A stretch of DNA of 64,000 nt. Source: a virus. This document shows, in pieces, positions 349-61,000 of this stretch. The stretch is from IMG/VR virus record IMGVR_UViG_3300028534_000002. One strand, written 5' to 3'. The notes beneath the pieces were generated by a model, which saw nothing but the letters and a program-made list of their open reading frames with translations, was not told the DNA's origin and did no database searches. How positions within the stretch are numbered: the first letter of the stretch is position 1; each line of letters opens with the position of its first letter. Both the position numbers and the translations under genes were made by a program.

Positions 349-3300
349 CTAATGATACACTTTAAACCATGCGTCTGTATCAAAGATTCCTAATGGTGTT
401 GTAATGTTTGGTGTTACCAGGTTAGATATAACTTCTATTGGGTCATCGCTCTGCCACCTATTGATAATGTTATCAGCTGGTCCATGATCAACAAGCGTAT
501 CCATTGGATCAGCTATATTTATACCAGTAACATGTTGTGCTGTTTGCTGTGCTGCAACAGCAGATGGATTACGTTTTATTACTTTCCAGTATGCCTTATG
601 GTGCTGGAATAAATACTTTAAGAACTGGATACCAAACACTCTTTCAACCCACATTTGTAATCCTGATACGTTGTATCCGTAGTTAATAAACTGCTCATCG
701 ACAAAATCTAATATATCTTGTTGTTCACGTTTGGTTAATTTTCTTTTATTTGTTAGCTCTTTCTTTTTTATCATGTGTTCAAGAAGCATTTGTCTTGCCA
801 ATGTGTCTGCGAACATTGTTATTTGTGTAGCTGTTCTGTGGGCTTGTGTGCCATTTGAGCCATATAGCAATGCCCTGGTTCTTGCAAGCTCAGCAGGAAT
901 TCTAAACTTCCACTTATTGTTTTTTAATTCTTTCTCTACTTCTGATATATATTTATTAACATCACCACCTCTTTCAGCTTTTCTTCTATAAGCTTCAACA
1001 ACTACCTGTGTATAATACTCTCTATCATTCTTTCCTTTCTCTGTCAAATCATTAATTAGATGGCCTATATACCCCTCTGGTTCATCAGATATATCGTCTA
1101 TCATCGCTGTAAACTGACCATCTTTAACAAGTTTAGCGAATGGATGCAAATCAATTCTTTTGTTTAGAATCTTAAGTTTGTCATCTACATCTTCTCCAAA
1201 GTTCTTTCTTAACGCAAGCGATATTCTTTGTCTACTTAAGTCTTGATACTCTTCTAGTTGATACCATTTGTTCCTAAACTCTTTTATATATCTGTATGGA
1301 TTTACACCATGCGACCACATTAGCATCATGTTTGAAATAAAGTTACCAACACCAATATCAGGATTAAATAAAATCGCAACTGTTTTGTTTTTATTAAGAA
1401 TTTCACCCCAAATCTTTTCTGCTGTCTTTATCGCTTTTCTTATTTTGTAACTTTTTATCAGAAGATCTTTATTGTTAGAAAATGGATTGATGTCTGACAT
1501 TGATATGTTTGCTAGAGAAGCTGATCGAGAACCAATCATTAGCTCAAGTATTTCGTCTGGCAAATGCAATACTCCATTATGCATGTCGTTTATATACTTC
1601 TTTACAGATGGAGACAGTTTATCCCATAGGTCTTTATTCTTATTCTTGCTTATTACAATAAAGTCTTTTTTGCTATATTTGTCATCATATTTTGTATCGC
1701 TATAGAACTGTTCTATGACATCAACAGCTTTTCTATTATGTATCGATGTTTGTCTTGCATTAACAAGCCTCTCTATTGTGTATGGAAGTGATGACATTAT
1801 ATCTATTGGAGCACCTATTGATTTTATATCATCATCTGATAACGGGAGTATCCAGTCAATAAGTCTTCCATTTTTGTCGTGTTTTGGCATAAGAACTAGA
1901 CCATCGTCTGACTTAAAAATATCATCTTTTTTTTGCGAAAGCATTTGCTTTAGCATCTTGTCTGTAAATTGAGCTACAGTAAGGTCTTTCATGCTATCAG
2001 GTGTAGATATCTTTTTTGCGTTATACAGAGCTGCTATTATTGACTTGATACCGTTCCCTTTTACTCCAATCGAAATTGAACCAAGCACGCCATCTTCATA
2101 TGGTACTGCGTCTTCTCCATGCTTTACCCTATAGAATTTCTCTCCACCTATTTCAAAACTATCAATTAACTCAATTTTACCAACAGTACTTTTGAATGTC
2201 TTAATATCATTATCGTGAACCAATGAGATCTGATATTTTGCTGTTCCTGTCTTGTTGTCTATAAACCCAAATGGAAGCGAGTTGAATCTTGAATTATCTA
2301 TAAATTCAGAATTTTTATATGCTTCAATTCTTGACTTGTATAGCTTCGTTACATGCTTCATCTCTTCGTTTAACTTTGGATTTTCATGCATAACTTCTAT
2401 AGCAATAAGCTCATCATCAGTCATTGACTCTAACGCTTTCATTGTTACATACTTATTTGCTAGCTCTATATCCTTATTTGTTGCTGTAACCTTGCTTTCA
2501 CCAATGCTTCTTCTTAATGGATCAAAATATCTAAGCAATACGTTTTGTGGATTGATTTGTTGGTTCTCTATGTGAACCTTTCCGTCAAGTGTCCATTTCG
2601 CAATTGCATCAAGATGCTCTTTTACTGAGTCTGTCATATTGTAACTTTTAGACAATTCATCAAGTGCTTCATTTGCCTTTCTTTTTGCCTGTGAGCGCAG
2701 TGACATTGACGAATAGTCAAACTCATCAATGTACTCATACATTCCAGACTTTAAAACTCTATTTACATAAACATACGAATTGTATGTATTGTCAGGGTTT
2801 GCAAGTTCAGTGTTTGACACAATGTTGGTTATCTCTGCAGATATATTTGTCATCATTGCTTCTATTGCTTGCTTCTGTCTTTTTAGTTGCAGAAGTGCTT
2901 GATACTTGTTCGTTGTGAAGTTTTGGAACATTAGGTTTTTCAATACTCTTGATGTCAATATCTTCTTCATAAATGATATCCTTTGTATACCATCAATCGC
3001 ATTTGCAACAACCTTGTTTGATTTTGGATCAAGCTTTGAAATTATTTTGTCTTTTTGTTCAAGTATTTTTCTAACTCCGTCCTCTATTGGGCCAGTAACA
3101 GCTCCCATTGCATCTATCACAGTTGCAGCAGTTTCAAGTGATTGACCAATAAATAATGGAGCATTGCTATACCCTCTTAATGTATCTGAAAAAGTTTCAT
3201 TTGCTAATAGGAATTGTTGTTTTAATTGAAACGCATGAACATCTTGCAATGTCTGCTTCATTATTTCATCACCAGTCTTTCCTATGTTTTGTTTTGGTGA

Positions 3301-5556
3301 AAATATTTTTCTTAATATCTCTGATAAGTATGCTGTCAGAACATCTATTGACCTATTTATTATTCCAAAAATTTTATTTCCACTACCCTTTAGTTTTCTT
3401 ACTTCTGCAAGTCTCGATAGTGCCTCATCAACTTTTGAAGGCACATCTTGTATCTGTATATCTTTTATAGCATCAAATAAGTAGCTATTTGACATTGCAT
3501 ATGCCATGAACTCCTCTATGTCTGCTCCATCTGATAGTATGTAATCAAATTTTCTTTGTATCAATTTCTCGTCTTCAGGAGTTAGTGATGTTGCACCCTC
3601 TTGAACCATTTGAATAGTAAAGACATCTGGACCAAGTTGCTTCTTAACTTCTCTTCTAAGATCCTCGAATGCTTTTCTCATTTTCAAATCTGAATCAAAT
3701 GCTCTTTTAAATAGACTGTGTAAAAGCTCGTGAAGCATTACCTCAGATGCAGAACTTGTTTTATCTGCAGGGTTGAACAGTACCTTGATAGCATCCCTAT
3801 CCTCCTGGTTCTCAAAGTCGAAGTCAGGTGTCCACATACCTTTTGTATTTGTACTATCTGTTACTCCAAGCGAGAAATCTATTTTTGTACCGTTATTCTT
3901 CATTACATCTTGAATTATTTTTAGTACTCTATCCATGTGATCATAATAGTCTTGAGTAATGTTAAGTACCTTTCCTGAAGCCATATCTACTTCTTGTACC
4001 ACCCTACTAAACACATCTCCAAGATTATTTTCTGTCAACAAGTCATTCATAAGTGCCGTCTCTGGAGTTAATTCAACAATGTCATCTGATGATCCCTTAT
4101 TGTAATCTTTATCAAAATTTGGTTCATGACTCTTATCAAATACTACAGCAAGTGACTCTGACAGTAGTGTTCTCTTATCATTATTTTTAACATTTTTTAG
4201 AAAGTGATTTAATATATCTTTTATGTGATCTAGGATTGTTTTTTTACCGTAGACTATCTTGTCTAACTCATCTCTAAGATCTTGTTTTTCGAGTAGTGTT
4301 GCAGTAAACTCATGCTCATTTGTAAACGCATATGTATCTTTCCATTGTGGGTTATGTTTAAGCGCTTCATTCATCAGCTTTTTGATTCTTTTTCTGTAAG
4401 AAGGATTTGAGTTTATCTCTTTTTCTGTAACCAAATGTCCAATTTCATGAATAATAACAGCATACGGATCAATGCTATTGTCTTTAATATTTGCAATATC
4501 GATTCCAATTGAATTTCTTCCTGCATATTGAATACCAGCTTTTCCAAGATTTTCTTGTAGCTTTATTTCAATGTCACCATTTATAGAGCTTAAAAGCAAG
4601 TCTATACTGCGTTTCTCGTCTTCGGTAATGTTTCTGTCAATGTCAGACAACAAGTCCTCTATATCGCTTACTTTTGAAGTTTTAATGCTTGGCTTCATAT
4701 TGTTGAATACAATTTTTCCGTTATCAAGCTTTTTTAGTATCTTGTATTTCTTTTGTTTCTTTCTTCCTTTAAAGAGTCCTATACCATCCTTTTCTCCGTA
4801 TTTATAGTTCTTTGATAGCTCTTCTTTTAATTTTCCTTCTCCTTGACTGTTGTACTCTCTGCTTGAATTTTTGTTGTCATCCAATAGAATAGTTGCTCCA
4901 GCATCTAGCGCTTTTTTTGCTTCTTCAAGAGTTTTATTAAAGTTTTCTTCAGTTATTTTCCCTTTTCCATTTATAGACAAAAACACAATATCATCTGAAG
5001 TATATTTTCCAGAATTTACTCTATCGGCGTGATCTTTTGATAGGACTGATGCATACTTTGCTGTACTTGAACCAGGTGCACCAAACCCTATAAATTTAGT
5101 TGCCTTAGACAGCTTTTTAGGAGCTTTTGTGCTGTCGGCCTTATTTGGACTTAGATTAACTTTTCTAAACGATTCTAGGTCGCCTTGTGTTCCATCTTCA
5201 AGAAATCTAGACTTTCCGTCATCTTCAACATTTGTGAACCAGTCTTTTACCTTGTTGTATGTATCCTCCTGGTTCTTTGTTAGTTTCTGTCCACTATTAA
5301 GCTTTTCTACTGCAGTAAAGAATGCATTTTTTTTTGCACCAAGTTGTCCGCCAGTAAGATCAGGAAACACCTTGTCAAATCCAAGTTCTTTTGCTGTTTT
5401 GCTTCTGCTAAATCTCTCTGGATGAAACTCAGGTCTGAGTCCTTTTCCTAGATCCTCTTTTATAGCTAATATATCTTTTTGAGAAAGTGACTCTTTCTCT
5501 GCATTATCAAGTTCTCTCATTAATGCGTCAAATCGCATTTCACCTGTACAAGCCAT
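349..5556 (-). CDS. giant 1735-aa multidomain protein with two HExxH zincin motifs (putative packaged/ejected polyvalent-type protein)
   Basis: Uninterrupted 1735-codon ORF with AGGAG 6 nt upstream of the ATG. HEIGH at aa 370-374 (nt 4435-4449) and HELLH at aa 609-613 (nt 3718-3732). Last gene of the late operon, directly downstream of the vRNAP-like gene. Confidence 0.6.
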   Translation of the reverse strand: MACTGEMRFDALMRELDNAEKESLSQKDILAIKEDLGKGLRPEFHPERFSRSKTAKELGFDKVFPDLTGGQLGAKKNAFFTAVEKLNSGQKLTKNQEDTYNKVKDWFTNVEDDGKSRFLEDGTQGDLESFRKVNLSPNKADSTKAPKKLSKATKFIGFGAPGSSTAKYASVLSKDHADRVNSGKYTSDDIVFLSINGKGKITEENFNKTLEEAKKALDAGATILLDDNKNSSREYNSQGEGKLKEELSKNYKYGEKDGIGLFKGRKKQKKYKILKKLDNGKIVFNNMKPSIKTSKVSDIEDLLSDIDRNITEDEKRSIDLLLSSINGDIEIKLQENLGKAGIQYAGRNSIGIDIANIKDNSIDPYAVIIHEIGHLVTEKEINSNPSYRKRIKKLMNEALKHNPQWKDTYAFTNEHEFTATLLEKQDLRDELDKIVYGKKTILDHIKDILNHFLKNVKNNDKRTLLSESLAVVFDKSHEPNFDKDYNKGSSDDIVELTPETALMNDLLTENNLGDVFSRVVQEVDMASGKVLNITQDYYDHMDRVLKIIQDVMKNNGTKIDFSLGVTDSTNTKGMWTPDFDFENQEDRDAIKVLFNPADKTSSASEVMLHELLHSLFKRAFDSDLKMRKAFEDLRREVKKQLGPDVFTIQMVQEGATSLTPEDEKLIQRKFDYILSDGADIEEFMAYAMSNSYLFDAIKDIQIQDVPSKVDEALSRLAEVRKLKGSGNKIFGIINRSIDVLTAYLSEILRKIFSPKQNIGKTGDEIMKQTLQDVHAFQLKQQFLLANETFSDTLRGYSNAPLFIGQSLETAATVIDAMGAVTGPIEDGVRKILEQKDKIISKLDPKSNKVVANAIDGIQRISFMKKILTSRVLKNLMFQNFTTNKYQALLQLKRQKQAIEAMMTNISAEITNIVSNTELANPDNTYNSYVYVNRVLKSGMYEYIDEFDYSSMSLRSQAKRKANEALDELSKSYNMTDSVKEHLDAIAKWTLDGKVHIENQQINPQNVLLRYFDPLRRSIGESKVTATNKDIELANKYVTMKALESMTDDELIAIEVMHENPKLNEEMKHVTKLYKSRIEAYKNSEFIDNSRFNSLPFGFIDNKTGTAKYQISLVHDNDIKTFKSTVGKIELIDSFEIGGEKFYRVKHGEDAVPYEDGVLGSISIGVKGNGIKSIIAALYNAKKISTPDSMKDLTVAQFTDKMLKQMLSQKKDDIFKSDDGLVLMPKHDKNGRLIDWILPLSDDDIKSIGAPIDIMSSLPYTIERLVNARQTSIHNRKAVDVIEQFYSDTKYDDKYSKKDFIVISKNKNKDLWDKLSPSVKKYINDMHNGVLHLPDEILELMIGSRSASLANISMSDINPFSNNKDLLIKSYKIRKAIKTAEKIWGEILNKNKTVAILFNPDIGVGNFISNMMLMWSHGVNPYRYIKEFRNKWYQLEEYQDLSRQRISLALRKNFGEDVDDKLKILNKRIDLHPFAKLVKDGQFTAMIDDISDEPEGYIGHLINDLTEKGKNDREYYTQVVVEAYRRKAERGGDVNKYISEVEKELKNNKWKFRIPAELARTRALLYGSNGTQAHRTATQITMFADTLARQMLLEHMIKKKELTNKRKLTKREQQDILDFVDEQFINYGYNVSGLQMWVERVFGIQFLKYLFQHHKAYWKVIKRNPSAVAAQQTAQHVTGINIADPMDTLVDHGPADNIINRWQSDDPIEVISNLVTPNITTPLGIFDTDAWFKVYH

Positions 5557-25673: not shown

Positions 25674-27032
25674 CTAGGCCACCTTGCCGCTCACGAGCAT
25701 CGTTCTAATGTGTTCAGGTTTGTTCACAAGTAGTCCGAAGTACCAGTCAATCGCAATTGAACCGCGATCTCCATGATTATCAATACCAGGAATAACTCTA
25801 GGAGCACCATGTTTGACACGAGCAACTTCACCTTGAAGAGCATATGTTTCAAATGAATCACTACCAACAACCAACATTGGGAATACGTCATAATGACCAT
25901 CTGTTACGTGCATGTTTGCTCCGCTATCTTCAATTCCGTCGCCATCATTGTCAGCTCCGTCAGTTGCATCCGCACCTTCACCTTTGAATACTGGCATGTC
26001 ATGAACTGAGATGAATCTGAAGTCACCAATTCGTCCAATTTCTCCATCTGCTGTTGTAGATGTTTTATTAATAACGGTTGAACCAGCAGGCGCAATTCCA
26101 GCACCATCAGCATATTCAGCTACATCTTGGAATAAGACTTTACCATTGTGTTCAAGATCTTCTAGTGTAGGAATAAGCTCTTGTGGAACAAAGATGTATC
26201 GTGCAGAACGAATTGTAACAGTATCAATCTTTGTTGAACCAGTCACCATGTTTGTATCAACAGGACATCTTGCTTCATTGAGTGACTGCTTAAGCATACG
26301 AAGCATTGGGAATGTTAACTGACATGTTTCATCAACTTCTTCGATAGTTGTCGCTCCACCACCATAAGTAGCATTTTGCATACCTTGAGTAATTAACTCA
26401 TTTCTGATCTGTGCTTCACGAATATCGGCATATGCTTCTGCAACTTTTTGCACTTGCTTTGTCAATAAAGATGTATCGGTATCAAGATCCATTGCTGCTC
26501 TAGTATATTGAATAGCAAAACCAAATCGATTAATACGTGCCTCAACGATATCACGCTTTGTACCAACGATGTTTACGGCTCCACCCTCTTCACCAAGAAT
26601 TGGGAATGCTCCAGTCTGTACGTTAAAGTCTCGACTTGAACCAAATAGGTTACCATCACCTTTTTGTACACGTACTTGACCTGCTCGCGCTTTAGCTTCA
26701 GCAAGCGTATCATGCTCTTGTCTTGTTGCTGGATCAGTTGGATCTGTCCAAGAGTACCATTTTCCAGGAACCATTTTTACACCATTTGCATCAATACCTT
26801 GATCGTTGATGTTTGCATCATGTAGAATTGGATATTCTCGATACTTCTTGATTTTTACACCATAGTTCTTTGGTTGCTTTCGTGCAGCACCCATTTGAGA
26901 GAACACTTTTTTCTTTGCTGCTTCAAGTACTGCGAATCTAGACCAATGAAAGTCATTTAGCTGAGCACCAACACTTGAAGTTGCTGGATCTAATCCACCA
27001 TCGTTATACACTTGTCCGTTAAAATCGGCCAT
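25674..27032 (-). CDS. major capsid protein (452 aa)
   Basis: Strong RBS AAGGAA. Lies immediately downstream of the acidic scaffold-like gene and downstream of the portal, as in N4-like genomes. Visibly higher GC and more G/C-ending codons than its neighbours. Followed by the hairpin at 25618-25648. Call is positional and compositional, not homology-verified. Confidence 0.65.
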   Translation of the reverse strand: MADFNGQVYNDGGLDPATSSVGAQLNDFHWSRFAVLEAAKKKVFSQMGAARKQPKNYGVKIKKYREYPILHDANINDQGIDANGVKMVPGKWYSWTDPTDPATRQEHDTLAEAKARAGQVRVQKGDGNLFGSSRDFNVQTGAFPILGEEGGAVNIVGTKRDIVEARINRFGFAIQYTRAAMDLDTDTSLLTKQVQKVAEAYADIREAQIRNELITQGMQNATYGGGATTIEEVDETCQLTFPMLRMLKQSLNEARCPVDTNMVTGSTKIDTVTIRSARYIFVPQELIPTLEDLEHNGKVLFQDVAEYADGAGIAPAGSTVINKTSTTADGEIGRIGDFRFISVHDMPVFKGEGADATDGADNDGDGIEDSGANMHVTDGHYDVFPMLVVGSDSFETYALQGEVARVKHGAPRVIPGIDNHGDRGSIAIDWYFGLLVNKPEHIRTMLVSGKVA

Positions 27033-29268: not shown

Positions 29269-29925
29269 TTATCTTCCAATATCCGTATTGATTTTTGCTG
29301 TTCTTCTTACTGTATCTATTCTATTTGTATTTCTTTTTACTCTCTCTTGTCGTAGTCCAGCTTGCTTTTGTCTTAAATCTAATTCTCTATTTACTCCATT
29401 TGACAGTCCAATTATACCTGCTATTTTTGCATTCTTTGTTGCGTCGTATCCTAGCTGACTAGACACTGCATATTCCTGAGCACCTTGAGACACGGCATTT
29501 GTTGCTGCCGATGTTAATACTTTAGTTGCAACCTTTCCACCCTTTCCTGGTATCCACTCTAATGGGTTTATTGATTCACCAATTGATCCAGCAACATTCC
29601 ATTCAGATGGATGCGTAGCTGTATCATATATGTACTTCCCTGTATTAACAATAATGTCTGTATTGCTTTTTGAGTTTTTTAAATCATCTACAATTTTATC
29701 GTAATCTGCTTTTCTGTTTGCACTCATCTGACTTGCTTTGTATTCATCGTCTCTTTGATTAGCATCATTTACTATTTTTGCAGATATTTTATCAGGATCA
29801 TTCCCAAGCATGTAGTCTTTTATCAAATCAAGTTTTGCAATTCCAGCTTGAGCAGACCTATTAAGTCTTGCTCCAAAGCTTTGATCATTGCTAAAAGTAT
29901 TAAACTGTCCCATTATCTTCACCAA
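29269..29925 (-). CDS. hypothetical head-module protein (218 aa)
   Basis: ORF overlapping the portal gene 3' end by 26 nt. Confidence 0.6.
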   Translation of the reverse strand: MVKIMGQFNTFSNDQSFGARLNRSAQAGIAKLDLIKDYMLGNDPDKISAKIVNDANQRDDEYKASQMSANRKADYDKIVDDLKNSKSNTDIIVNTGKYIYDTATHPSEWNVAGSIGESINPLEWIPGKGGKVATKVLTSAATNAVSQGAQEYAVSSQLGYDATKNAKIAGIIGLSNGVNRELDLRQKQAGLRQERVKRNTNRIDTVRRTAKINTDIGR

Positions 29926-32323
29926 TCATTTCATCTGGTGCAATAGTGCTTCTAATTTCAGGATCTTTCATTGGTTGCTTTGTGCTTGGCATTCTCTGTA
30001 TTGATGGAAGATCCTTTGTATACTTTGATGTATCTAGACTATTTTTGTTTAGTATGTTTCTAAAGATGTCATCTGCAGCATCATATGTATCATTCTGCAT
30101 TGTACCACTCTTTATGTAGTCAAGGTTTTTTTCTTTTGACGTTTTATCTTCATTCTTTTTCTCATCTTTAAGCTTGATATTCTCTTGCTCCCTCTTGGTC
30201 CTGATCTCTTCTCTCTCAAGGTTTGCCAAGTGATGGAATTCATTATCTTCTTTTTCCCACTCACGCTTAACACCAGTATCAATAAGTTCAAACTCTTGAT
30301 TAAATAGTTTAACCTGCGCATCCATCTTGTCTGCTTGTGCTAGTGCTAGTTCTGCTTGTGATTTATCTTTGATAACTTTTGCTTCTTGTGAACCAGCCAT
30401 GATTGATTCTTTTATTTCGTCTATTTTTGCATCTTTGAATTCCATCTCTTTTATCTTGGCTAGTAATTCTATTTGTGCCTTTTTATTTTCCAACTTAAGT
30501 CTCTCAAGCTCTAGTTGTTGCGCTAAAACCTGTTCTTCTGACGGTGGTTTACTAGCCTCTTCAATTGTTGCTCTAGCAAGATCTGGAAGATTCCAAAGCT
30601 CAGCTGTTTTCGCATAGTGCTGTGCTGCTAACTGAGGAGACATGCTTGCACCATTGTTGTGCAAGAAGAACATTATCTTTGATGCTTTGTTGTCTGCTAT
30701 ACTTGGAGTTAGAACATCTACTGATATGTTGTATTCATCATTGAGTGCATCAGTATCGCCTATCTGCTCTGACGATCCACTTGCATTTGCATATACTGCA
30801 TCATCCAATAAGAATGCTTTATTCATTGATAAGATCAAGTCCCCTGCCTGCTCTATCATCGTTAGAAACCTTCTCAAGATTTCCATCTCTCTGTTTGTTT
30901 TGGCATCTATTGGCATTGGAGAATTTGAGATCGATTGAGTTATTCTTGATCCAGCTCCACCATCCATGTCTTCAACACCAGTTAGAAGTGTTGAATGCTC
31001 TGTATATATGTTTTTCATGTCGAATAACACTTTTGGCACTGGCTCAACAGATTTTCTCATTATTGCTCTGCTTAGATCTGTCCCCCTGTTGACGTATACA
31101 GTTTTCCCTCTTTCATAGTTATCCTTTTGAATTGGTGTTTTAAATATACTGTCATCAATAAATTCTTGTCCAGCAGCGTTTTCGTTTGTTATATCTTGCA
31201 TAGCTCTGTATGTTGCTGTTAGAGATTTTTGATCATCCTCTAGTAGTGTTGCGTAAGGCTCTCCCCATATTTCGTCCTTAAGTGGCCTAAATGATGCAAT
31301 TACATATGGTATTTTTTTATGAGGATATGGGTTTTCTTCTAGCCTAACAAGTCTGTCTCCAATCCATGATGCAACAATTGGAACCAGGTTGTTGTCGCCG
31401 TTTATATCCCAGTATCCCCAATATTCATACATTGTAATTTTCTTTCTTGCCAAGTCAGAAAACTCAAACATATCATCTTCATCATAGTCTGTATATGTTG
31501 CAAGATTATAGTCGTTTGTTCCTACACCAGACTTCCCCTTTATATATTCTTTTACATAGTCAAGATTGAAGTATGAATCATTCTTTGAGAGTGTTGCATA
31601 GTCTGTCTCCTGAATATCTATAACAAATTTAACATTATTCCAATCACCTTTTGCAGATGGATCAACAATAATTGCCCTATTATCTCTTACTGAAAGCATT
31701 GGTCTATTTTCAATTATTCTCTCAACTTCAACCTCAACTTCCTCTATTCCTATTGGTAACTGTCCACTACTGCTTAGCTCATTAACTAGACTATTGTACA
31801 GATCCTGGTTCTTACTTGCCCTCACAAGTATTTCATTAATTTCAGCTTTATCTGTTGTATATATCTTTCTCTCTGTTATCTCCAACTCTTTTTTAGTCTC
31901 GAGTTTCCATCCAACCTTTATTACACATGTTCCTTCTATTGCAAAGTTTCTTGCGGCCTTATTTACTAGAGCAACCTTTCCTATCTCTTTATCCCATTGA
32001 TGGTTTAGTATGTCTGCGTTTTTTGATGCAACCTGTATCGCTCCACTTGTTTTTGCAGTCAAATCAAACAGTCTTTTTTTTGACAATACTGGACTTTCTA
32101 TATTTGGGATCACCCACTCCATCATTTTCTTAAATAGATAACTTCTGTATGTTGACTTTATCTTTTTTAGACCTTTTCTTTGCTCTGTATATTTGTCTTC
32201 ATTGTATATGCGATTATAGAAATCCAATCTATCTATCTGTCTTAAGTGTGAAGATTCAGACGATTTGTAGTCAGACTTAAGGTCTGATATCTTTGGTTTA
32301 TTTTTCCAACTGTTGCTTGACAT
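29900..32323 (-). CDS. portal protein (807 aa)
   Basis: Largest protein between the terminase/tail block and the capsid. Size and position are typical of a portal (N4 gp59 position). RBS AAGAGG, and TAATG coupling to the upstream gene. Confidence 0.6.
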   Translation of the reverse strand: MSSNSWKNKPKISDLKSDYKSSESSHLRQIDRLDFYNRIYNEDKYTEQRKGLKKIKSTYRSYLFKKMMEWVIPNIESPVLSKKRLFDLTAKTSGAIQVASKNADILNHQWDKEIGKVALVNKAARNFAIEGTCVIKVGWKLETKKELEITERKIYTTDKAEINEILVRASKNQDLYNSLVNELSSSGQLPIGIEEVEVEVERIIENRPMLSVRDNRAIIVDPSAKGDWNNVKFVIDIQETDYATLSKNDSYFNLDYVKEYIKGKSGVGTNDYNLATYTDYDEDDMFEFSDLARKKITMYEYWGYWDINGDNNLVPIVASWIGDRLVRLEENPYPHKKIPYVIASFRPLKDEIWGEPYATLLEDDQKSLTATYRAMQDITNENAAGQEFIDDSIFKTPIQKDNYERGKTVYVNRGTDLSRAIMRKSVEPVPKVLFDMKNIYTEHSTLLTGVEDMDGGAGSRITQSISNSPMPIDAKTNREMEILRRFLTMIEQAGDLILSMNKAFLLDDAVYANASGSSEQIGDTDALNDEYNISVDVLTPSIADNKASKIMFFLHNNGASMSPQLAAQHYAKTAELWNLPDLARATIEEASKPPSEEQVLAQQLELERLKLENKKAQIELLAKIKEMEFKDAKIDEIKESIMAGSQEAKVIKDKSQAELALAQADKMDAQVKLFNQEFELIDTGVKREWEKEDNEFHHLANLEREEIRTKREQENIKLKDEKKNEDKTSKEKNLDYIKSGTMQNDTYDAADDIFRNILNKNSLDTSKYTKDLPSIQRMPSTKQPMKDPEIRSTIAPDEMIGEDNGTV

Positions 32324-44249: not shown

Positions 44250-46025
44250 TTATACCTCCAGCTTTAAAATTTCTTTTGTTCTATATTTAGTCATCAGATA
44301 CCTACCCTCAAGATCCATAACATACATAGAGTTATATCTTATATCAATATCTGTATCCAGTTTTCTATCAAGTGATGTCTTTGCAAGCATTGTTCCGTCA
44401 TTAACTGATACCTCGTATATTTCGCTATCACCTGGAAATATTGAAGATGCATACATTCTTGATGAATCAATAATAGATATTTTTGTTTTTGATGTATAGT
44501 TTTGCAATGCAATAATTCCTGATTGGTCAGAGTCTATATCATCAAACATGTAAACCTTCCCATTCGTTGTAAGTAGATACAGTGTGTCTCCTCTTGCTGA
44601 TGCAGACATTACGCCATAATCCTCAAGTATATCCTGCAGGTCAATTTGTCTCTTGTACTCAAGTGTATATGCATCATATATTTTAGCAACAAGACCACAA
44701 AATAGTATCAAATCTCCTTGAAATGATGCCAATGCTGTAACTATATCACCTGGTATAATAGAGCGCTCATAAACGTTGTTAAACACCCCATTTGATATAT
44801 CATAAATATATGTTTCTCCATTTAACTTATCTGAAGCAATTGATACATATTTTGATCCAGTGAAACAGAATCCTATTGGATTGAAATCATATACCTTATA
44901 GTTATACTTACTGTCGTCAACAATATTTATGTGCGTTAAAATCTTTACATACGACATGATACATTCGTCATCAATAGCAAATATATCTTCTGTTGTTATA
45001 ACTCTCCATGGAGACTGGTTCATCCTCTTCTTTCTTATAGCTAATCCATCAACATAATATAGATTGTTTCTATTGTCTATTGCATATATTTTTGAAGAGT
45101 CGATTTGAATACTATCAGATAGATCCATTTTTTTGATATTTAAAATTCTTGCAGTGTCATCATTCATGACTATAAGCAATTCTGCACTTGATCCTGTTAT
45201 CTGAGATATGTCTGCACCTACATCAACTACATCATCATCTATAGTCATTAGGTTTGTATCGACAAACAATACTTTTCTATCACTTGTTGCAACCGCAATC
45301 CTTCCATCTACCTCTGCTATTGATACTATATTTGATCCAATATCAATCTCTTTGTCTTCTATTTCGTGGTCAAGATCTGTCATTTTAAGGACAGACTCTT
45401 CTGTGTAGAATTTTAACCCAAAAACAACTATCTCCTTCATTTGTCCAGGCGGTGAATATCTCGTCTCTTCTCCAACAACTCCATCTTTATTGATTCTGTA
45501 TATACCTTGTGTTGATGATGCTACTAGAGACCTATATCCATTTATATACTCAAGGCCTGTGATACCAAAAATATCATTATTGGAGAATAGTTCTGAACCA
45601 GTGAGTGACAGGTCACTTGTTTCGCTTAATGGGGCTACTCCAGCTTGTACATCCTCTGTTGCAGCAAACTTTAATCCTTCGTATCCAACAACGCTATTTT
45701 CTTGGTATTCTAAATTCTCATCATAATAATCTATTCTGAAAATGTTTTTATCAAAATCATTTTTTAAAACTAGCTTCCACTTATCGTCTTCCCTAAAGAA
45801 TACGTCTCCAGTTGTTTCATTCTTGCATACAGAGTCATTTGGTGCACTAATGTATAAATCTGTGTATATCTTTGGCACCCTTCCCTCTGCTGTCAAAAAG
45901 TTTGCCTGTTCTGCATATCTTATTGTTGCGCTTGTTCCGTCTTCAGCAAAGAATCTAACTTTCCCAGTATCTTCAAATACTTGGAAGCTGTTAAATGCTG
46001 ACAGTATTGATGTTTTGCCTATCAT
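44250..46025 (-). CDS. tail/virion structural protein, function unknown (591 aa)
   Basis: ORF with a 4-nt ATGA overlap to the upstream gene. Confidence 0.6.
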   Translation of the reverse strand: MIGKTSILSAFNSFQVFEDTGKVRFFAEDGTSATIRYAEQANFLTAEGRVPKIYTDLYISAPNDSVCKNETTGDVFFREDDKWKLVLKNDFDKNIFRIDYYDENLEYQENSVVGYEGLKFAATEDVQAGVAPLSETSDLSLTGSELFSNNDIFGITGLEYINGYRSLVASSTQGIYRINKDGVVGEETRYSPPGQMKEIVVFGLKFYTEESVLKMTDLDHEIEDKEIDIGSNIVSIAEVDGRIAVATSDRKVLFVDTNLMTIDDDVVDVGADISQITGSSAELLIVMNDDTARILNIKKMDLSDSIQIDSSKIYAIDNRNNLYYVDGLAIRKKRMNQSPWRVITTEDIFAIDDECIMSYVKILTHINIVDDSKYNYKVYDFNPIGFCFTGSKYVSIASDKLNGETYIYDISNGVFNNVYERSIIPGDIVTALASFQGDLILFCGLVAKIYDAYTLEYKRQIDLQDILEDYGVMSASARGDTLYLLTTNGKVYMFDDIDSDQSGIIALQNYTSKTKISIIDSSRMYASSIFPGDSEIYEVSVNDGTMLAKTSLDRKLDTDIDIRYNSMYVMDLEGRYLMTKYRTKEILKLEV

Positions 46026-48200: not shown

Positions 48201-50129
48201 TTAATTGAAGTACCCGCGTGTTTCATCGCATTTGTAACAGTCGTAATCAGTTATCTTGTTAGACGAATATACAGGGTCAAAAACTATACCATTATAACTT
48301 GTTTGTTCTTTGACTGGCATTTGCGGTACAAGTATGTCTATCAGTGCCATTTGGCTTATACAGTCAAGGCCATCATCGTGGTTTGCTTTTATTTCAGTTC
48401 CAGTTGTCATCTTTAGCTCATCTATCAGTTCAGCCATTCCTCTATTGAAATATTTTAGGGCTCTGTTAAAAAATACTTTCCCTTCATAAAATCTTTCTGC
48501 AACAAGATGAAGCCTCCATAGCTTATCTCCATTTCCTCTTGACTTTATTCCATCCCATGTTACTTTTTCATTTAGCTTTGGCTTTTGTCTTGCCAATATC
48601 AATGTCTCCTTGTTGTCGTCATAAAATCTTTGTAGTCCGCTTAAATGAAGCACTTGTTGTCCATCTATCTCGACAGCAACCTCATTTATGTACCCACCCC
48701 AACCTTTTGCTTTTTTTGAAAACTTAAATGTTGATCCATACTGCTCTTGTATTGTTTGCTTTTCGAGAACCAGGTCTACTAGATACCATCTATCCATCCA
48801 GTCAACTGCCCAAATAAATTGACCACTAAGGTCTGATCCCTTGTTTGCTGTTGTTGTGTAGTCTGTAGTTATGTACCATGAGTAGTCTTGTCCGTTATCT
48901 TTTATCTTTTGCATATCAATCCATTTAATATGCTTATCTTGTATTAGTCTTTCATGCTCGGAAGTTACTCTTACATAATACTCTTGATCAAGCGTTTTAA
49001 GCTTCTTTGTGTTACCTTTTTTTGCTGCACGCTCTGCAATCTCATATTCCTTCCTCTGCTTCTCAAATGTATGCCTATCTGGCCACACTGAAACAAATTG
49101 CTCTTTCGTCATTGCAGGCTTTATTAGCTCACCAGTCTTCTCGTCGTATATGTCTCCGTGAGGCTGAACTTCTGCTTTCGGAAATACAACAGGCAAGAAC
49201 GTCCCCTCAGTTACTCTTTTGTATACGGGGTCACCTGTATGATATGCTGTACCAATCAGTATTTGAAAATGCCCTTCTCCAGATAATGATGAACCAACAT
49301 CTGCTTCAATTGTGCTATCAATAGCACTTAGTACTGCCTTTGAATATGCATCTTTTTCATTAGCTACCATGTCATCGAATATTGCAAACTGTGGTCTGTC
49401 TAGCCCTGATCTAGATCCCCTACCACCAGATGATCCTAACCCTTGCACTTTGAATCTACGTTTCATTCTTCCTGGAACGCCATCTTCTCTTGCACCTTTC
49501 TTTGACATGTGATCGTTATATGCCTTTATCTCTTGCTTGGTTCTCGGCTTTCGTATCATCTCTATCGCAGAGTCCGTAAAGTGTGTCCATTCAAACCTAC
49601 TTTGAAGATACTTTGAACCTAGATACAGATCCTCTATCGTTCTCATCGTTGTCTTAACGTTACCATCCATTCTATCTGATACATACATTCCAAAGTTAAC
49701 TTTTCCAAATCCCGGCATCTCTCCTTGGTCTGCCATATACAGTATCATGTATGCAAGAATTGTAGATTTTGAGAACTCCCTTGTGCTTAGGATTAATGTA
49801 TTGCCTTTTAATGTATCAAAATCCATATTTCTAACTTGATAGTACGGTTTAACTTCTTCTGATTGAAACATGCAGTCAACAAAAAAGTAATGAGCTTTTG
49901 GGTTTAGATTCTCTGGCTCTTCGCCTATACACAAACGAATGAACGAAATAAACATGATTGCGTTTACCGATGGCGTATACCAATCCAATTTTAAATCTAC
50001 ATAGTCTAGTAGCATCTCGACTGTTATTTCATCTTTGTCCTTAAAAGCAGGAATAATATATCCAGTGTCAACAGCCCACTTCATCTCCTCTCTTGTTCTT
50101 GGAATTCCTTTTGGGTCACTTAAAATCAT
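48201..50129 (-). CDS. terL: terminase large subunit (642 aa)
   Basis: RBS AAGGAT. N-terminal ATPase-like segments (LILSTREFSKST, QFAIFDDM as Walker B). C-terminal RNaseH-like nuclease acidic motifs (WYITTDYTT..., NHDDGLDCISQ). Heads the packaging/tail block as in N4 (gp68 position). Confidence 0.8.
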   Translation of the reverse strand: MILSDPKGIPRTREEMKWAVDTGYIIPAFKDKDEITVEMLLDYVDLKLDWYTPSVNAIMFISFIRLCIGEEPENLNPKAHYFFVDCMFQSEEVKPYYQVRNMDFDTLKGNTLILSTREFSKSTILAYMILYMADQGEMPGFGKVNFGMYVSDRMDGNVKTTMRTIEDLYLGSKYLQSRFEWTHFTDSAIEMIRKPRTKQEIKAYNDHMSKKGAREDGVPGRMKRRFKVQGLGSSGGRGSRSGLDRPQFAIFDDMVANEKDAYSKAVLSAIDSTIEADVGSSLSGEGHFQILIGTAYHTGDPVYKRVTEGTFLPVVFPKAEVQPHGDIYDEKTGELIKPAMTKEQFVSVWPDRHTFEKQRKEYEIAERAAKKGNTKKLKTLDQEYYVRVTSEHERLIQDKHIKWIDMQKIKDNGQDYSWYITTDYTTTANKGSDLSGQFIWAVDWMDRWYLVDLVLEKQTIQEQYGSTFKFSKKAKGWGGYINEVAVEIDGQQVLHLSGLQRFYDDNKETLILARQKPKLNEKVTWDGIKSRGNGDKLWRLHLVAERFYEGKVFFNRALKYFNRGMAELIDELKMTTGTEIKANHDDGLDCISQMALIDILVPQMPVKEQTSYNGIVFDPVYSSNKITDYDCYKCDETRGYFN

Positions 50130-56083: not shown

Positions 56084-57094
56084 ATGAAGCTACATAAAAA
56101 TGCAAAAAAGAATGCACAAAAAGCGTTTGACGTGCTTGACGACAAAATTAAGTCAATTCACGGCAACAGATACAAATATGACAACTTTGTATATTTGTCA
56201 TCGTCAGATAAATCACATGTTACGTGTAGACTACATGGTGATTTTCTTGTCTCAATGAGAGCTCATTTGTCAAAAGATGAAAAAATAAGAACTCATTGTC
56301 CAAAATGTAAAAAGATTTACACAAAAAGGCAGAACATCAAAAAACGAAAGGACAAGGCTTTATCTGACGCAAAAAGACTTCATAACGGATATTATGATTA
56401 TTCAAAGTTCGTCTTTGAGGGAATGTCAAAAAAAGGTATAGTAATATGCCCTGAGCATGGTGAGTTCTTAGTAAATATGACTGAACATACTGGAGTCAGA
56501 AGAACCAGATGCAGGAAGTGTGTAGACAGAGATATGGGTATCGCAAACAGAAACTCACAGGACGACGTAGTTAAGCGTTTTTTTGAAGTGCATGGAGACA
56601 AATATGATTACTCTGCTGTTAAGTATACTAGAACTTGTGACAAGGTTGATATTTATTGTAAAAAACATAGAGTTTGGTTCAAGCAGACTCCAAATGGTCA
56701 CCTTACTGGAAGGTCTGGGTGTACAACTTGTGCTGAAATAAAGATGATTACATCAAAGCTCTCAGAGGAGCATAGAAATGTAAAATTCAATATATACTAC
56801 ATAGAGCTTAATGGAGTGTATAAGATTGGAGTTACATCAAGAGGACTTCGTTCTCGCTATGGAAAAGATGTTATGAATATTGCAAAAATATTATACTGGT
56901 CTAAAGAGCTTGATATTGATACTGCTGTATCTGTAGAGCAAAAAATTGTTAGACGCTACAGTAAGTTTACTTATACTGGAAAGCCACTTATTGAGAAGGA
57001 TAGATATGTTGGTAATCACAAAGAATGGTTTTGTACAGACATCTTCAAAGGAGATTACTCAAGACTCCAAAAGATGTGCAATAAACAAAGATAG
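56084..57094 (+). CDS. free-standing homing endonuclease-like protein (3 Cys/His repeats + T5orf172/GIY-YIG-superfamily domain), 336 aa
   Basis: Three repeats of the type HG..Y.Y..V.......(V/I).C..HG.F......H.......C..C. C-terminus YYIELNGVYKIGVTSRGLRSRY...NHKEWF. Lies directly after the RNAP gene. Confidence 0.7.
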   Translation: MKLHKNAKKNAQKAFDVLDDKIKSIHGNRYKYDNFVYLSSSDKSHVTCRLHGDFLVSMRAHLSKDEKIRTHCPKCKKIYTKRQNIKKRKDKALSDAKRLHNGYYDYSKFVFEGMSKKGIVICPEHGEFLVNMTEHTGVRRTRCRKCVDRDMGIANRNSQDDVVKRFFEVHGDKYDYSAVKYTRTCDKVDIYCKKHRVWFKQTPNGHLTGRSGCTTCAEIKMITSKLSEEHRNVKFNIYYIELNGVYKIGVTSRGLRSRYGKDVMNIAKILYWSKELDIDTAVSVEQKIVRRYSKFTYTGKPLIEKDRYVGNHKEWFCTDIFKGDYSRLQKMCNKQR

Positions 57095-57124
57095 GCACTC
57101 CTTGTGAGTGTCTTCTTTTTTTTC
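57094..57124 (+). terminator. rho-independent terminator
   Basis: GGCACTC-cttgt-GAGTGTC (one G-U) followed by TTCTTTTTTTTT. Confidence 0.8.
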
Positions 57125-57133
57125 TTAAAACTG

Positions 57134-57156
57134 AAAGAGCATAGCTCTTTTTTATA
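57134..57156 (+). terminator. second tandem terminator
   Basis: AAAGAGC-ata-GCTCTTT followed by TTTTAT. Confidence 0.6.
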
Positions 57157-57397
57157 ATTGTTGTCTTGCAGACGGCTTTTTTTTGTTTATTAAGCGATAA
57201 TGGCATGATATAAGAGGCATGATATGAGATTGTGAACCAGTTGAATGTGTTGTTCTATGAAAGTCTTTATTCTTTTCTATATAAGGCGAAAATGAAATCT
57301 GCTTTAAATTCATTGATTGTGGTGTTTGGAAGAGTTTTTGTGTGTAAAGTGTGGTCTTACACTGTGTATAATGAGACCATACAGTATTTCCTTATTA

Positions 57398-57670
57398 TTT
57401 TGTATATATCTGCATTGTTTTGTATATATCTGCAGAACTATAGGAACAATAGGAATAGTTCTTGTTTCTTGCATTGTTCCTGCATTGTTCCTGTTTTTCA
57501 AATCCCACAATCTCGGTCATTTCCTATTGTTCTTGTTGTTCTGCGAGAATATGGCATATTATTGTTCTTGTGTCCAATTGTTCCTGTTCTAAACTCAGGA
57601 ATAATACAAGAATAATAAAGAAAATAATAGTTCTTATATTTTTTTAACATAATATTACAAGAACTATTGT
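57398..57670. repeat. iteron-like repeat array (candidate replication origin or operator array)
   Basis: TGTATATATCTGCA x2 with period 20 (57401-57414, 57421-57434). GCATTGTTCCT x2 in tandem (57471-57492). ATTGTTC(T/C)TG at 57526, 57561 and 57577. Inverted copies AGGAACAAT (57442) and CAAGAACTATT (57659) versus AATAGTTCTTG (57454). Confidence 0.7.
57497..57516 (+). promoter_or_regulatory. conserved 20-nt motif TTCAAATCCCACAATCTCGG (copy 2)
   Basis: 18/20 identical to 53253-53272. Lies inside the iteron region upstream of the ATPase gene. Confidence 0.5.
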
Positions 57671-57706
57671 ATACTTGTAGTGTATTATATTTTCGGAAAA
57701 GAGTTA

Positions 57707-58762
57707 ATGATGAAAAACTACAAAGAAGAGCTATTCTTGGATGATGCATTCTGGAATAAGTTCGGAGAGATTGAACCAGACAATGCATCAGATAATAAGG
57801 TACTGCCTTACAATGGAGTTGGTTTTGTGTTTGGAAAACCTGCTAGTAGAAAAACAACCATTGTATTAGACACTGTCAAATCAATGTCTTTCGATAGAAA
57901 GTATTACGTTGATTGCGACAGTAAAAGTATAGCACAAGCAAAAACAACATTTACTGAATTATCTAAATTTGATAACTTCAAGTACATGAATACTTTGTTG
58001 GCTGATGTTGAACCAGTAGAGTATCTCAATAGAATACTTGAAACAATCAAGTTGGCAAAAGAAGATGTTAAGTATGAGTTCGATGAAGAACTTCAAGAAG
58101 AAGTTGAGATTAAAGGTGATTTGGTTGATGCTTCGTTTTGTATTGTTGTTGACACTTGGCATCAGGTTATAGAAGATGAAAACGACAATCATCTTGTAAA
58201 GGCTTTGATGAAGAAGTGCAGAAGCTATGCTCAAAGGTATAACATTTTAATTGTATTTATTGCTCATGTTGGCAAGTCTAAAGATAACGATATCAGAGGA
58301 GCATCAGCAGTCTCTGGTGATGCAACATTCAAAGTTCTTGTTGAGTCTTCTGATATTGACAATGAGTTTAAGATAACACCAACAAAAGATAGTTTGGGTA
58401 TTCTTGAATCAAGCACAGCAATATTTACACAAAGCTCATCAATCTCTAACTCAGAGATTAAATATTCAACTGAAATTAAAGAGGAGAAAAAAGTGAAGCC
58501 AAAAGATGCAGCATTACAGGCAACAATGGTGAATATTGTTAGAGATAAAATAAAAGAGAATGGCAATATAAGATTACTGTTTGGGGAGTTTAAAGAGTTC
58601 TTGATTGATAACGCAAACAAGATAAACAAATTTAAGCCATCCGATCCATTATTTTTATCAGAGTATTTTATAAAAAATAACTTTTCTGATTTTGCAACAT
58701 CTTTATTTGAGGTTGAAAATGCAGGTAGACGAAAATATATCGTAGGTATTTTGAACCAGTGA
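57707..58762 (+). CDS. RecA-fold P-loop ATPase (RepA/DnaB-C-terminal-like), 351 aa
   Basis: Start moved to ATG 57707 (GGAAAAGAG RBS). Walker A GKPASRKTT, Walker B FCIVVDTW, then ILIVFIAHVGKS...RGASA. Lies downstream of the iteron array. Confidence 0.65.
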   Translation: MMKNYKEELFLDDAFWNKFGEIEPDNASDNKVLPYNGVGFVFGKPASRKTTIVLDTVKSMSFDRKYYVDCDSKSIAQAKTTFTELSKFDNFKYMNTLLADVEPVEYLNRILETIKLAKEDVKYEFDEELQEEVEIKGDLVDASFCIVVDTWHQVIEDENDNHLVKALMKKCRSYAQRYNILIVFIAHVGKSKDNDIRGASAVSGDATFKVLVESSDIDNEFKITPTKDSLGILESSTAIFTQSSSISNSEIKYSTEIKEEKKVKPKDAALQATMVNIVRDKIKENGNIRLLFGEFKEFLIDNANKINKFKPSDPLFLSEYFIKNNFSDFATSLFEVENAGRRKYIVGILNQ

Positions 58763-58987
58763 TGCACAATGATTGACTTTCTTTAAAAACAATTGTTTAA
58801 AAAATAAGAGCTTTTAACTGCTTACCTATGCCATGGTATAGGAAAGGCATAGTTTTGAGCTCTGAGGCTAAGCTAGACTGCTTAACTAATGTATCAATAT
58901 AAAACAATAAAACTAATTTGAGCCAATCTAAATCTGATTTGTTCTGATGAGTTTTATGCTCAATTTTTTTTCTCAAAAGGATTAACT

Positions 58988-59299
58988 ATGAAAACAACTA
59001 AAATTGAAATTACAACCGACCTTCTTAATGAGATTCTTGTTGACGAGGATCACTCACTCGCTGAGATGATCTTGTGCGAAGATGAGATCATTGATCTCTA
59101 CAATGGTGGAGATATTGATGAGCTCGTTGAGCGAATCAACGCATCTACTGACGACATAGTTGAAGAGATTCAGCGTGCTAAAGAAGATGGCGATAGTCGT
59201 CGTTTCTTCACCTGGGTTCAGGCAATGGAGAATCGTCTTAAGCGTGAGGTTGTGGAGTTCAACTCTACGCCTATTGGTACTTGTAACGACTGTGGATGA
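58988..59299 (+). CDS. acidic protein ending in half a zinc ribbon (103 aa; continues in frame past TGA to 59362)
   Basis: RBS AAAGGATTAACT-ATG. Ends ...GTCNDCG-TGA. The next 20 in-frame codons read TVTRRDGHHCPSCGSDAIIS-TAA, which completes a CxxC-x12-CxxC ribbon. Confidence 0.6.
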   Translation: MKTTKIEITTDLLNEILVDEDHSLAEMILCEDEIIDLYNGGDIDELVERINASTDDIVEEIQRAKEDGDSRRFFTWVQAMENRLKREVVEFNSTPIGTCNDCG

Positions 59300-59425
59300 A
59301 CAGTCACACGCAGAGATGGACATCATTGTCCATCGTGTGGCAGTGATGCCATTATTAGCTAAGGCTAATTTGTAGGCTCTTAGGAGTCTACTGATTAACT
59401 TTTGAACCAAGTAAAGGAGTATGTT

Positions 59426-59608
59426 ATGAAGAAGTTGATTGATGTTGGAGATAGATTTGTATCCAAGAAGTATGGTTACATTGTGACAATTATCAAGTTG
59501 CCTATAGGAAAGGTGTGTTTCTCTGCGCAAAATAGAGATACTGTTGTAGAAATGTCAAAGGCAGACTTCTTCGACTGCTTTAAAAAATTCTTAGAAGGAG
59601 ATAGATAA
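59426..59608 (+). CDS. small early protein (60 aa)
   Basis: Start moved to MKKLIDV (AAGGAG 6 nt upstream). Confidence 0.6.
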   Translation: MKKLIDVGDRFVSKKYGYIVTIIKLPIGKVCFSAQNRDTVVEMSKADFFDCFKKFLEGDR

Positions 59609-59609
59609 G

Positions 59610-59831
59610 ATGAAATATTTACTAATAGTTTTACTTGGATTGGTTCTAGTTGGTTGTGGAGAGACTCAAAACAACATTAATAATGTCCAGTTTACAGCAT
59701 CAGAAATGTATTCAAATTGTATCGAGGATTATATGTCGGATGCTACTAAACTTGATAAAGACCTTGATCCTTATGAAGCAATTGATATCTTGAGTTATCA
59801 AGCTCAAGAATATTGTGACGCTACTCTTTAG
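59610..59831 (+). CDS. small lipoprotein (73 aa)
   Basis: Signal peptide MKYLLIVLLGLVLVG-C with lipobox LVGC. GGAG RBS overlapping the upstream stop. Confidence 0.7.
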   Translation: MKYLLIVLLGLVLVGCGETQNNINNVQFTASEMYSNCIEDYMSDATKLDKDLDPYEAIDILSYQAQEYCDATL

Positions 59832-59924
59832 AGTAGTGCTCAACAATTGAGATACATTCGTGTATTTGACTGGTTTAGCACGCTTCTTTAACCACATTCT
59901 CATAATCTTACAAAGGACAATATC

Positions 59925-60404
59925 ATGACTTACGAAAATCTTACTGTATCTCAAATTATAGCCACAATAAATTCTATTAATAATCTTTACAGAGCCGCAA
60001 AGCCTGCAAAGCCAATTCTCGATGCATTAGAGATCCTCGAGTCAGTTGCTAGTAGCAGAATAGACTTGGAAGAAGAGATCTATTACGATAGATTAGAGTT
60101 TGAGAAATTTGATAAATCCATTCAAGCAGAATTCGACATTAGCAACAACTTCTACGAAGAAGATGTTGATGAATTCGAATGGCATGATAATCCTAATGTC
60201 TATGAACCAGTTCTAGATGATACGGTTCGCTTACTCTTGGATCTCTATCCTAGAGAATCTTTAAACGATATGATGCTGGACTTGATGTCTGGAATCGATA
60301 GAGTATTCTACTCGTTCAATGGCGTACCTCTACTGTTGTCAGAGGAGGCAGAGTTTATAACGATGTCTGCCATCTCGCTACTAGAGAGTCGTATAAAGAG
60401 ATAA
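59925..60404 (+). CDS. strongly acidic early protein (159 aa)
   Basis: About 33 D/E versus 13 K/R by count. RBS AAAGGA. Confidence 0.65.
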   Translation: MTYENLTVSQIIATINSINNLYRAAKPAKPILDALEILESVASSRIDLEEEIYYDRLEFEKFDKSIQAEFDISNNFYEEDVDEFEWHDNPNVYEPVLDDTVRLLLDLYPRESLNDMMLDLMSGIDRVFYSFNGVPLLLSEEAEFITMSAISLLESRIKR

Positions 60405-60478
60405 TATCTCTATTTGAGTGCATATTTGTGCACTCTGATAGGCATATTTATATGTCAATTTTCCTTTAGGAGTTCGAA

Positions 60479-61000
60479 ATGAAATACAGTAAAATGACAG
60501 ATATTGAATTAATCAGCTTAGTTACAGAGAAGTTATCTCCAGAGCAAATTGCTGAGATTAATAATCTGAGTATTGGCCTCAAACCAAAGGCTGATATGCT
60601 TGATGAGGTAAAAAAGACTTTGACTAAAAAGTATCCTGATATTAGAGAAGAGCTTGTTGAGCTTAAGCTTGCCAAGGCCTTAGCACTGGCAAAGAAGCTT
60701 TACCAAAGCTCTCTACATATCGTAGATGGTCATTTGGCTGTTATAAAGACAATCCATATGGACGATGAACTGGATAAGCTCAATGAGAAAGAGTATAAGA
60801 ACTTCCTGTTCATGGCCAACCTCAAGCAAAGCGTTAACACATTAGAGGTGATGGTGCTTGAGCAAGGATTGAGAAAGGTGATGTCAATTAGTAGCAATAT
60901 TCTACTTGATCTCGAGCCAGAGTTGATCGTCGAGATCAAGAAACGCATAAATGGAGAGAAACCTCTACCAGACAACGCACTAGACAACGTAATATTCTAG
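60479..61000 (+). CDS. early protein, family B (173 aa), paralog of 53540-54097
   Basis: See 53540-54097. RBS TAGGAG. Confidence 0.75.
   Translation: MKYSKMTDIELISLVTEKLSPEQIAEINNLSIGLKPKADMLDEVKKTLTKKYPDIREELVELKLAKALALAKKLYQSSLHIVDGHLAVIKTIHMDDELDKLNEKEYKNFLFMANLKQSVNTLEVMVLEQGLRKVMSISSNILLDLEPELIVEIKKRINGEKPLPDNALDNVIF

Follow-up and report, generated by a model that had tools for sequence, protein, structure and literature searches.

An in-frame TGA in a zinc-ribbon gene of an uncultured N4-like phage is probably a recent, strain-specific nonsense substitution

A small gene of an uncultured N4-like phage is interrupted by an in-frame TGA that falls between the two halves of a C-terminal zinc ribbon. 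With a probability of roughly three in four, we consider this TGA to be a real, recent and strain-specific nonsense substitution of the ordinary kind in a gene of the presumed early region. The gene lies in a window of 64,000 nucleotides (the whole stretch of DNA that we analysed), which is part of a phage contig of ~99 kb. An earlier sequence-only reading of the window had left a recent nonsense mutation, programmed readthrough or recoding, and a sequencing error as options; the first of these is favoured, as sister strains carry the gene intact with GGA at this position.

The interrupted gene and its homologues

The features of the split gene are as follows.

58977-58981, plus strand: Shine-Dalgarno-like AAGGA, 6 nt 5' of the ATG at 58988, kept in the related contigs L001, L003 and L004
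58988-59299, plus strand: 5' part of the gene, 103 codons and the premature TGA; starts with ATG at 58988, and the frame ends ...IGTCNDCG-TGA
59282-59293, plus strand: first zinc knuckle, C99-N-D-C102, present in all homologues (CSDC in L003 and L004)
59297-59299, plus strand: premature stop TGA, codon 104; T at 59297 is the derived base
59300-59362, plus strand: 3' part of the gene that the stop separates, 20 codons (TVTRRDGHHCPSCGSDAIIS) and TAA (59360-59362), holding the second ribbon half
59327-59338, plus strand: second zinc knuckle, C114-P-S-C117, invariant across homologues

When the TGA is read through, the joined halves form C99-x2-C102-x11-C114-x2-C117, i.e., the CxxC-x11-CxxC zinc ribbon that is also found in the 124-aa homologues. 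The ribbon proposed from the letters alone was thus recognised correctly; its spacing of x12, for which the position of the stop codon had been counted, has to be changed to x11. For the 84 ORFs on the coding strands that encode 60 aa or more, in which real genes are mixed with overlapping chance ORFs, we followed the frame beyond the stop codon. Only the ORF at 58988 had a short extension bearing a CxxC, and the single other CxxC match belonged to an extension running into the next gene. Because it is the sole short CxxC extension among the 84 ORFs, the split zinc ribbon goes beyond chance. Direct reading of the 3' piece (59300-59362) revealed no in-frame ATG, GTG or TTG restart, and separate translation of this piece was rejected since it has no in-frame start codon. 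The region upstream of the stop is acidic, with 26 D+E versus 10 K+R in 103 aa and a pI of 4.1, and its N-terminal part is predicted to be helical.

Three homologous contigs carry both halves as one 124-aa protein, which bears out the claim that the TGA cuts a zinc ribbon. Two of them, L003 (ENA ERZ27262639) and L004 (Logan SRR7968103), share 98.1-98.5% nucleotide identity with the window over 2.1-5.9 kb. Both encode the same uninterrupted protein of 124 aa (P0003), the second member of the 90%-identity cluster of the window protein. A protein search recovered another uninterrupted 124-aa homologue (P0001) with 82% amino-acid identity, encoded on L001, a contig from the metagenome of a deep-sea hydrothermal chimney (IMG 3300005095; PMC7329443). 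In the alignment, the homologues do not stop after the first CxxC and keep the downstream CxxC, and the split ribbon is therefore real.

Origin, age and expected consequences of the stop codon

At codon 104, the window has TGA, while L003 and L004 have GGA (Gly) and L001 has GCC (Ala). The local sequence reads GGA TGA ACA in the window and GGA GGA ACA in L003 and L004. As a first-position G is common to both outgroups, the T at 59297 is derived. Judged from this alignment, the event is a single strain-specific G-to-T transversion at 59297 that turned GGA (Gly) into TGA; the TGG-to-TGA transition envisaged earlier does not agree with GGA, GGA and GCC in the relatives. The homologues further indicate that position 104 accepts both Gly and Ala.

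To the sides of the stop codon, substitutions among the window, L003 and L001 revealed a coding signal in both directions. In the upstream 103 codons, 47 of 73 variable sites fall at third positions (P = 6e-8). In the 20 downstream codons, 7 of the 8 sites that vary do so silently at a third position (P = 0.0026 for 7 or more third positions), the eighth being S124G, and hence the downstream stretch was coding until recently. This substitution pattern indicates that the whole 124-codon frame has been under purifying selection in the clade. The downstream frame contains neither a frameshift nor a second stop before the TAA and evolves as coding sequence; a recent mutation would look identical. 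With L001 as outgroup, a single downstream change can be placed on the window lineage, the silent CCG to CCA at 59332. Because it is the only one, relaxed constraint after the mutation cannot be shown from these data, and a dead 3' part cannot be told from one that is still partly used.

Over the 5.9 kb shared with L003, which contain 93 differing alignment columns (substitutions plus gap positions), the TGA at codon 104 is the only disruptive difference; the other coding differences are substitutions, and the indels are all intergenic. On the scale of the ~2% divergence between these strains, the nonsense mutation is recent.

As an ordinary nonsense substitution, the TGA would have simple consequences. 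Release factor 2 would end most translation after Gly103, giving a 103-aa product with a single zinc knuckle, in which the zinc ribbon presumably cannot form within a single chain. The gene would then be either heading towards a pseudogene or tolerated as a truncated variant. Near-cognate misreading of UGA-A, most likely by tRNA-Trp, may yield a small full-length fraction if the phage's own host behaves like E. coli. There, tRNA-Trp is reported to misread UGA especially readily when an A comes next (PMC5289835), and a premature stop at one position of a reporter gave 0.7-6% signal depending on the stop codon, with TGA as the leakiest (PMC11126739). By this analogy, it is plausible that a small percentage of the chains reach full length, probably with Trp as residue 104. 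The leak product would contain the peptide EVVEFNSTPIGTCNDCG-X-TVTR, where X is expected to be Trp. There is no indication that such a leak is selected or programmed.

The allele is comparable to the classical opal mutants and other nonsense alleles of accessory phage genes in that a one-base change creates a UGA in a gene that is intact in sister strains. In common with these mutants, the downstream frame is undamaged and the leaky UGA may leave a little full-length product. Unlike the classical alleles, which were selected in the laboratory, the allele in the window comes from a wild metagenomic population.

Alternative explanations of the TGA

Functional leaky readthrough, in which UGA-A is kept to provide an abundant 103-aa form alongside a little 124-aa protein whose residue 104 is Trp or another near-cognate amino acid, could reduce or adjust how much full-length protein is made. 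We regard this as unlikely, even though several observations are compatible with it: in E. coli, tRNA-Trp misreads UGA-A more readily than other contexts (PMC5289835), reporters show a measurable leak at a premature TGA (PMC11126739), the downstream frame lacks a frameshift or second stop, Gly and Ala are both tolerated at position 104, and stable hairpins flank the stop (z-score -3.85). However, strains without the stop have the hairpins just as well, so these are unlinked to it, and a very recent mutation would equally leave an intact downstream frame. To our knowledge, no stimulatory element for bacterial readthrough exists apart from SECIS. Above all, the sister strains have GGA and the further relative has GCC; since the stop is not conserved among relatives, the option of programmed readthrough was not supported.

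A comparison with the readthrough of the Q-beta coat gene into A1 leads in the same direction. The Q-beta coat stop lies in the context UGA-A, and both cases involve an in-frame UGA-A in a phage gene followed by an extension that is real protein sequence. Q-beta, however, has a fixed stop and cannot do without the extended protein, whereas the stop in the window is absent from all relatives (GGA, GGA, GCC), and its extension of only 20 residues merely completes a domain.

Considering that the TGA depends on one base, we also weighed a sequencing or assembly artefact, in which the true base at 59297 would be G and the gene intact. A Logan contig from SRR8439170 (98,987 bp) shows no difference from the window in the 21.9 kb compared, the TGA included. 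Because this second assembly carries the same base, a consensus error is unlikely at the assembly level. The two assemblies were made by different pipelines, but as they are 100% identical over these 21.9 kb, they may share their reads or come from one population. When G is oxidised during library preparation, G-to-T changes arise, and the lone G-to-T difference at 59297 is of this type. Damage artefacts are, however, of low frequency and rarely make it into a consensus. Moreover, the 5.9 kb shared with L003 contain no frameshift and no other disrupted gene, which argues for a clean consensus. Together, this leaves a small chance that the base is wrong.

The TGA allele might also act as a strain-level dosage switch that provides mostly the 103-aa form plus a few percent of the 124-aa zinc-ribbon form, to the advantage of the phage in the host of this strain. 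We give this little credence.

A true recoding of TGA as Gly (code 25), Trp (code 4) or selenocysteine via the hairpin at 59315-59334 is highly improbable. The Gly codon of the sister strains makes code 25 tempting, as GGA to TGA would then be silent, yet only seven sense codons lie one step away from TGA, GGA among them, and the match is weak evidence. In 51 genes, none of the 19,348 codons is an in-frame TGA, despite 1,066 GGN and 162 TGG codons in this set and 1,568 TGA triplets in the other two frames. The same genes end with TAA (30), TAG (18) and TGA (3 of 51), a rarity that would suit recoding. One of these TGA stops, at 46022, acts within an ATGA stop/start overlap (46022-46025). Because of the absence of in-frame TGA and this overlap, codes 4 and 25 are practically excluded, the codon counts ruling out TGA as Gly, and the earlier judgement that a global reassignment of TGA is unlikely holds. 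The relatives of the major capsid protein belong to N4-like phages of Proteobacteria, for which the standard code holds. Of the contig of ~99 kb, the 64-kb window and the 9.7 kb beyond its start yielded no tRNA gene and thus no suppressor tRNA.

Selenocysteine could be suspected from an 8-bp hairpin (59315-59334) that begins 15 nt past the TGA. This candidate was rejected, as the homologues carry Gly or Ala, not Cys, at codon 104 and no Rfam element, including SECIS, was detected in 57000-61000. The hairpin is also present in strains without the TGA, and its loop UCAU lacks the G that bacterial SECIS loops carry. Aside from these considerations, TGA stops are unusually rare for a genome of ~36% GC, although TGA is never used as a sense codon.

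Protein family, phage context and meaning

The protein resembles generic C4 zinc ribbons (rubredoxin-like; Zn_ribbon_3, the NrdD C-terminus and L32) in its C-terminal CxxCG...CPxCG with 11 residues in between. In contrast to these, the family has no match at a curated cut-off and its N-terminal part has no detectable relatives. All sub-threshold matches in Pfam, PHROG and PDB, including HypA, the NrdD C-terminus and L32, fall on the ribbon (residues 99-120). Pfam Zn_ribbon_3 reached E = 0.005 (16.7 bits versus a cut-off of 27); the HypA, Cas12f TNB, NRDD and DZR profiles stayed under their cut-offs as well, and the PDB match to a miniaturised rubredoxin with the same knuckle spacing was weak (E = 0.28). 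An AlphaFold2 model built from the alignment of three sequences had a mean pLDDT of 57.6, with values of 74-78 for residues 91-120; this weak model is helical up to residue 92, with strands at 95-98 and 105-107.

Searches for further relatives added little to the family. Megablast of 57600-60500 returned no match among cultured phages, and tblastn of the 124-aa protein against cultured phages returned only non-significant matches to NrdD zinc ribbons. Neither a protein scan and a degenerate DNA pattern scan of IMG/VR nor protein-pattern and DNA pattern scans of JGI metagenomes detected relatives. HMMER recovered from 1.84 billion representative proteins only the window protein's own cluster and P0004, a repeat protein of 1300 aa that contains the motif RDGHHAPE and that we judged to be a spurious match. 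A word search in 5.8 billion proteins likewise found homologues only in this small phage group. As far as these searches reach, only a few related phage contigs carry the family. For such a small, acidic, early zinc-ribbon protein, a host-interaction or nucleic-acid-related role can be speculated.

The following features of the window bear on the identity of the phage.

349-5556, minus strand: giant ORF of 1735 aa
5597-14812, minus strand: giant ORF of 3071 aa, weak match to PF21867 (vRNAP_dom_2), an N4 virion RNA polymerase domain
25674-27032: major head protein, 33-35% identical to capsids of N4-like Acinetobacter, Klebsiella and Erwinia phages
29900-32323: portal, match to phrog_1216
48201-50129: large terminase, match to phrog_38

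The putative giant virion RNA polymerase, together with the capsid, portal and terminase, indicates an N4-like (Schitoviridae-like) context. The contig of ~99 kb is longer than the 74-79 kb of the N4-like phages among the capsid-protein matches. The split gene sits in a plus-strand block of small genes, next to a T5orf172/DUF723 endonuclease-like gene, an AAA ATPase gene and a Sak4-like gene. By comparison with N4, this block is most likely an early or replication region.

Several features of this neighbourhood are worth recording. The 336-aa protein encoded at 56084-57094 (plus strand) combines DUF723 repeats with T5orf172, matches the endonuclease family phrog_681 (E = 3e-29) and is probably a homing endonuclease. 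Directly after its gene, at 57093-57176, three terminator-like hairpins are each followed by a T-run. Up to 57680 there are ~500 nt of non-coding AT-rich DNA with a 20-nt indel relative to L003 (57394-57413). Parts of the non-coding DNA in 57093-57680 are 92-97% identical to L001 and thereby more conserved than the flanking genes, and this stretch may be a regulatory or origin region. The ATPase gene (57680-58762) has its TGA stop exactly at an indel junction (58759-58801), where 262 nt of L003, carrying an additional 84-aa gene, stand in place of 42 unrelated bases of the window; the L003 ATPase has another C-terminus (...GILNQEDKLND). Beyond the window start, positions 15345-25208 of L006 (the same contig) encode a class I ribonucleotide reductase, the large subunit of which has intein and LAGLIDADG matches, as well as a SegE-like GIY-YIG endonuclease, RepL and Thy1.

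The 3' end of the split gene and the spacer to the next gene are covered by a row of five hairpins (59288-59390). Three of these, with loops in square brackets, are GACTGT[GGATGA]ACAGTC, GATGGACA[TCAT]TGTCCATC and GTAGGCTC[TTAG]GAGTCTAC. The hairpins are kept in all three lineages through pair-preserving changes, e.g., positions 59317 and 59332 pair as U-A in the window, as C-G in L003 and as U.G in L001, and the fold z-score is -3.85. On the weak basis of three sequences, the row may serve to stabilise or process the mRNA, or may be a hairpin signal in the DNA as used by N4-type polymerases.

As to the meaning of the split gene, it should be annotated as a 124-codon zinc-ribbon gene with a premature stop and not as one for a complete 103-aa protein. 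The split domain was settled through the sister strains, whose sense codon at this position reveals what the ancestral state was and how old the change is. The finding has little importance beyond annotation. If the leak were functional, however, the gene would illustrate on a small scale how readthrough can vary dosage in a natural phage, with selection sampling readthrough in an early gene.
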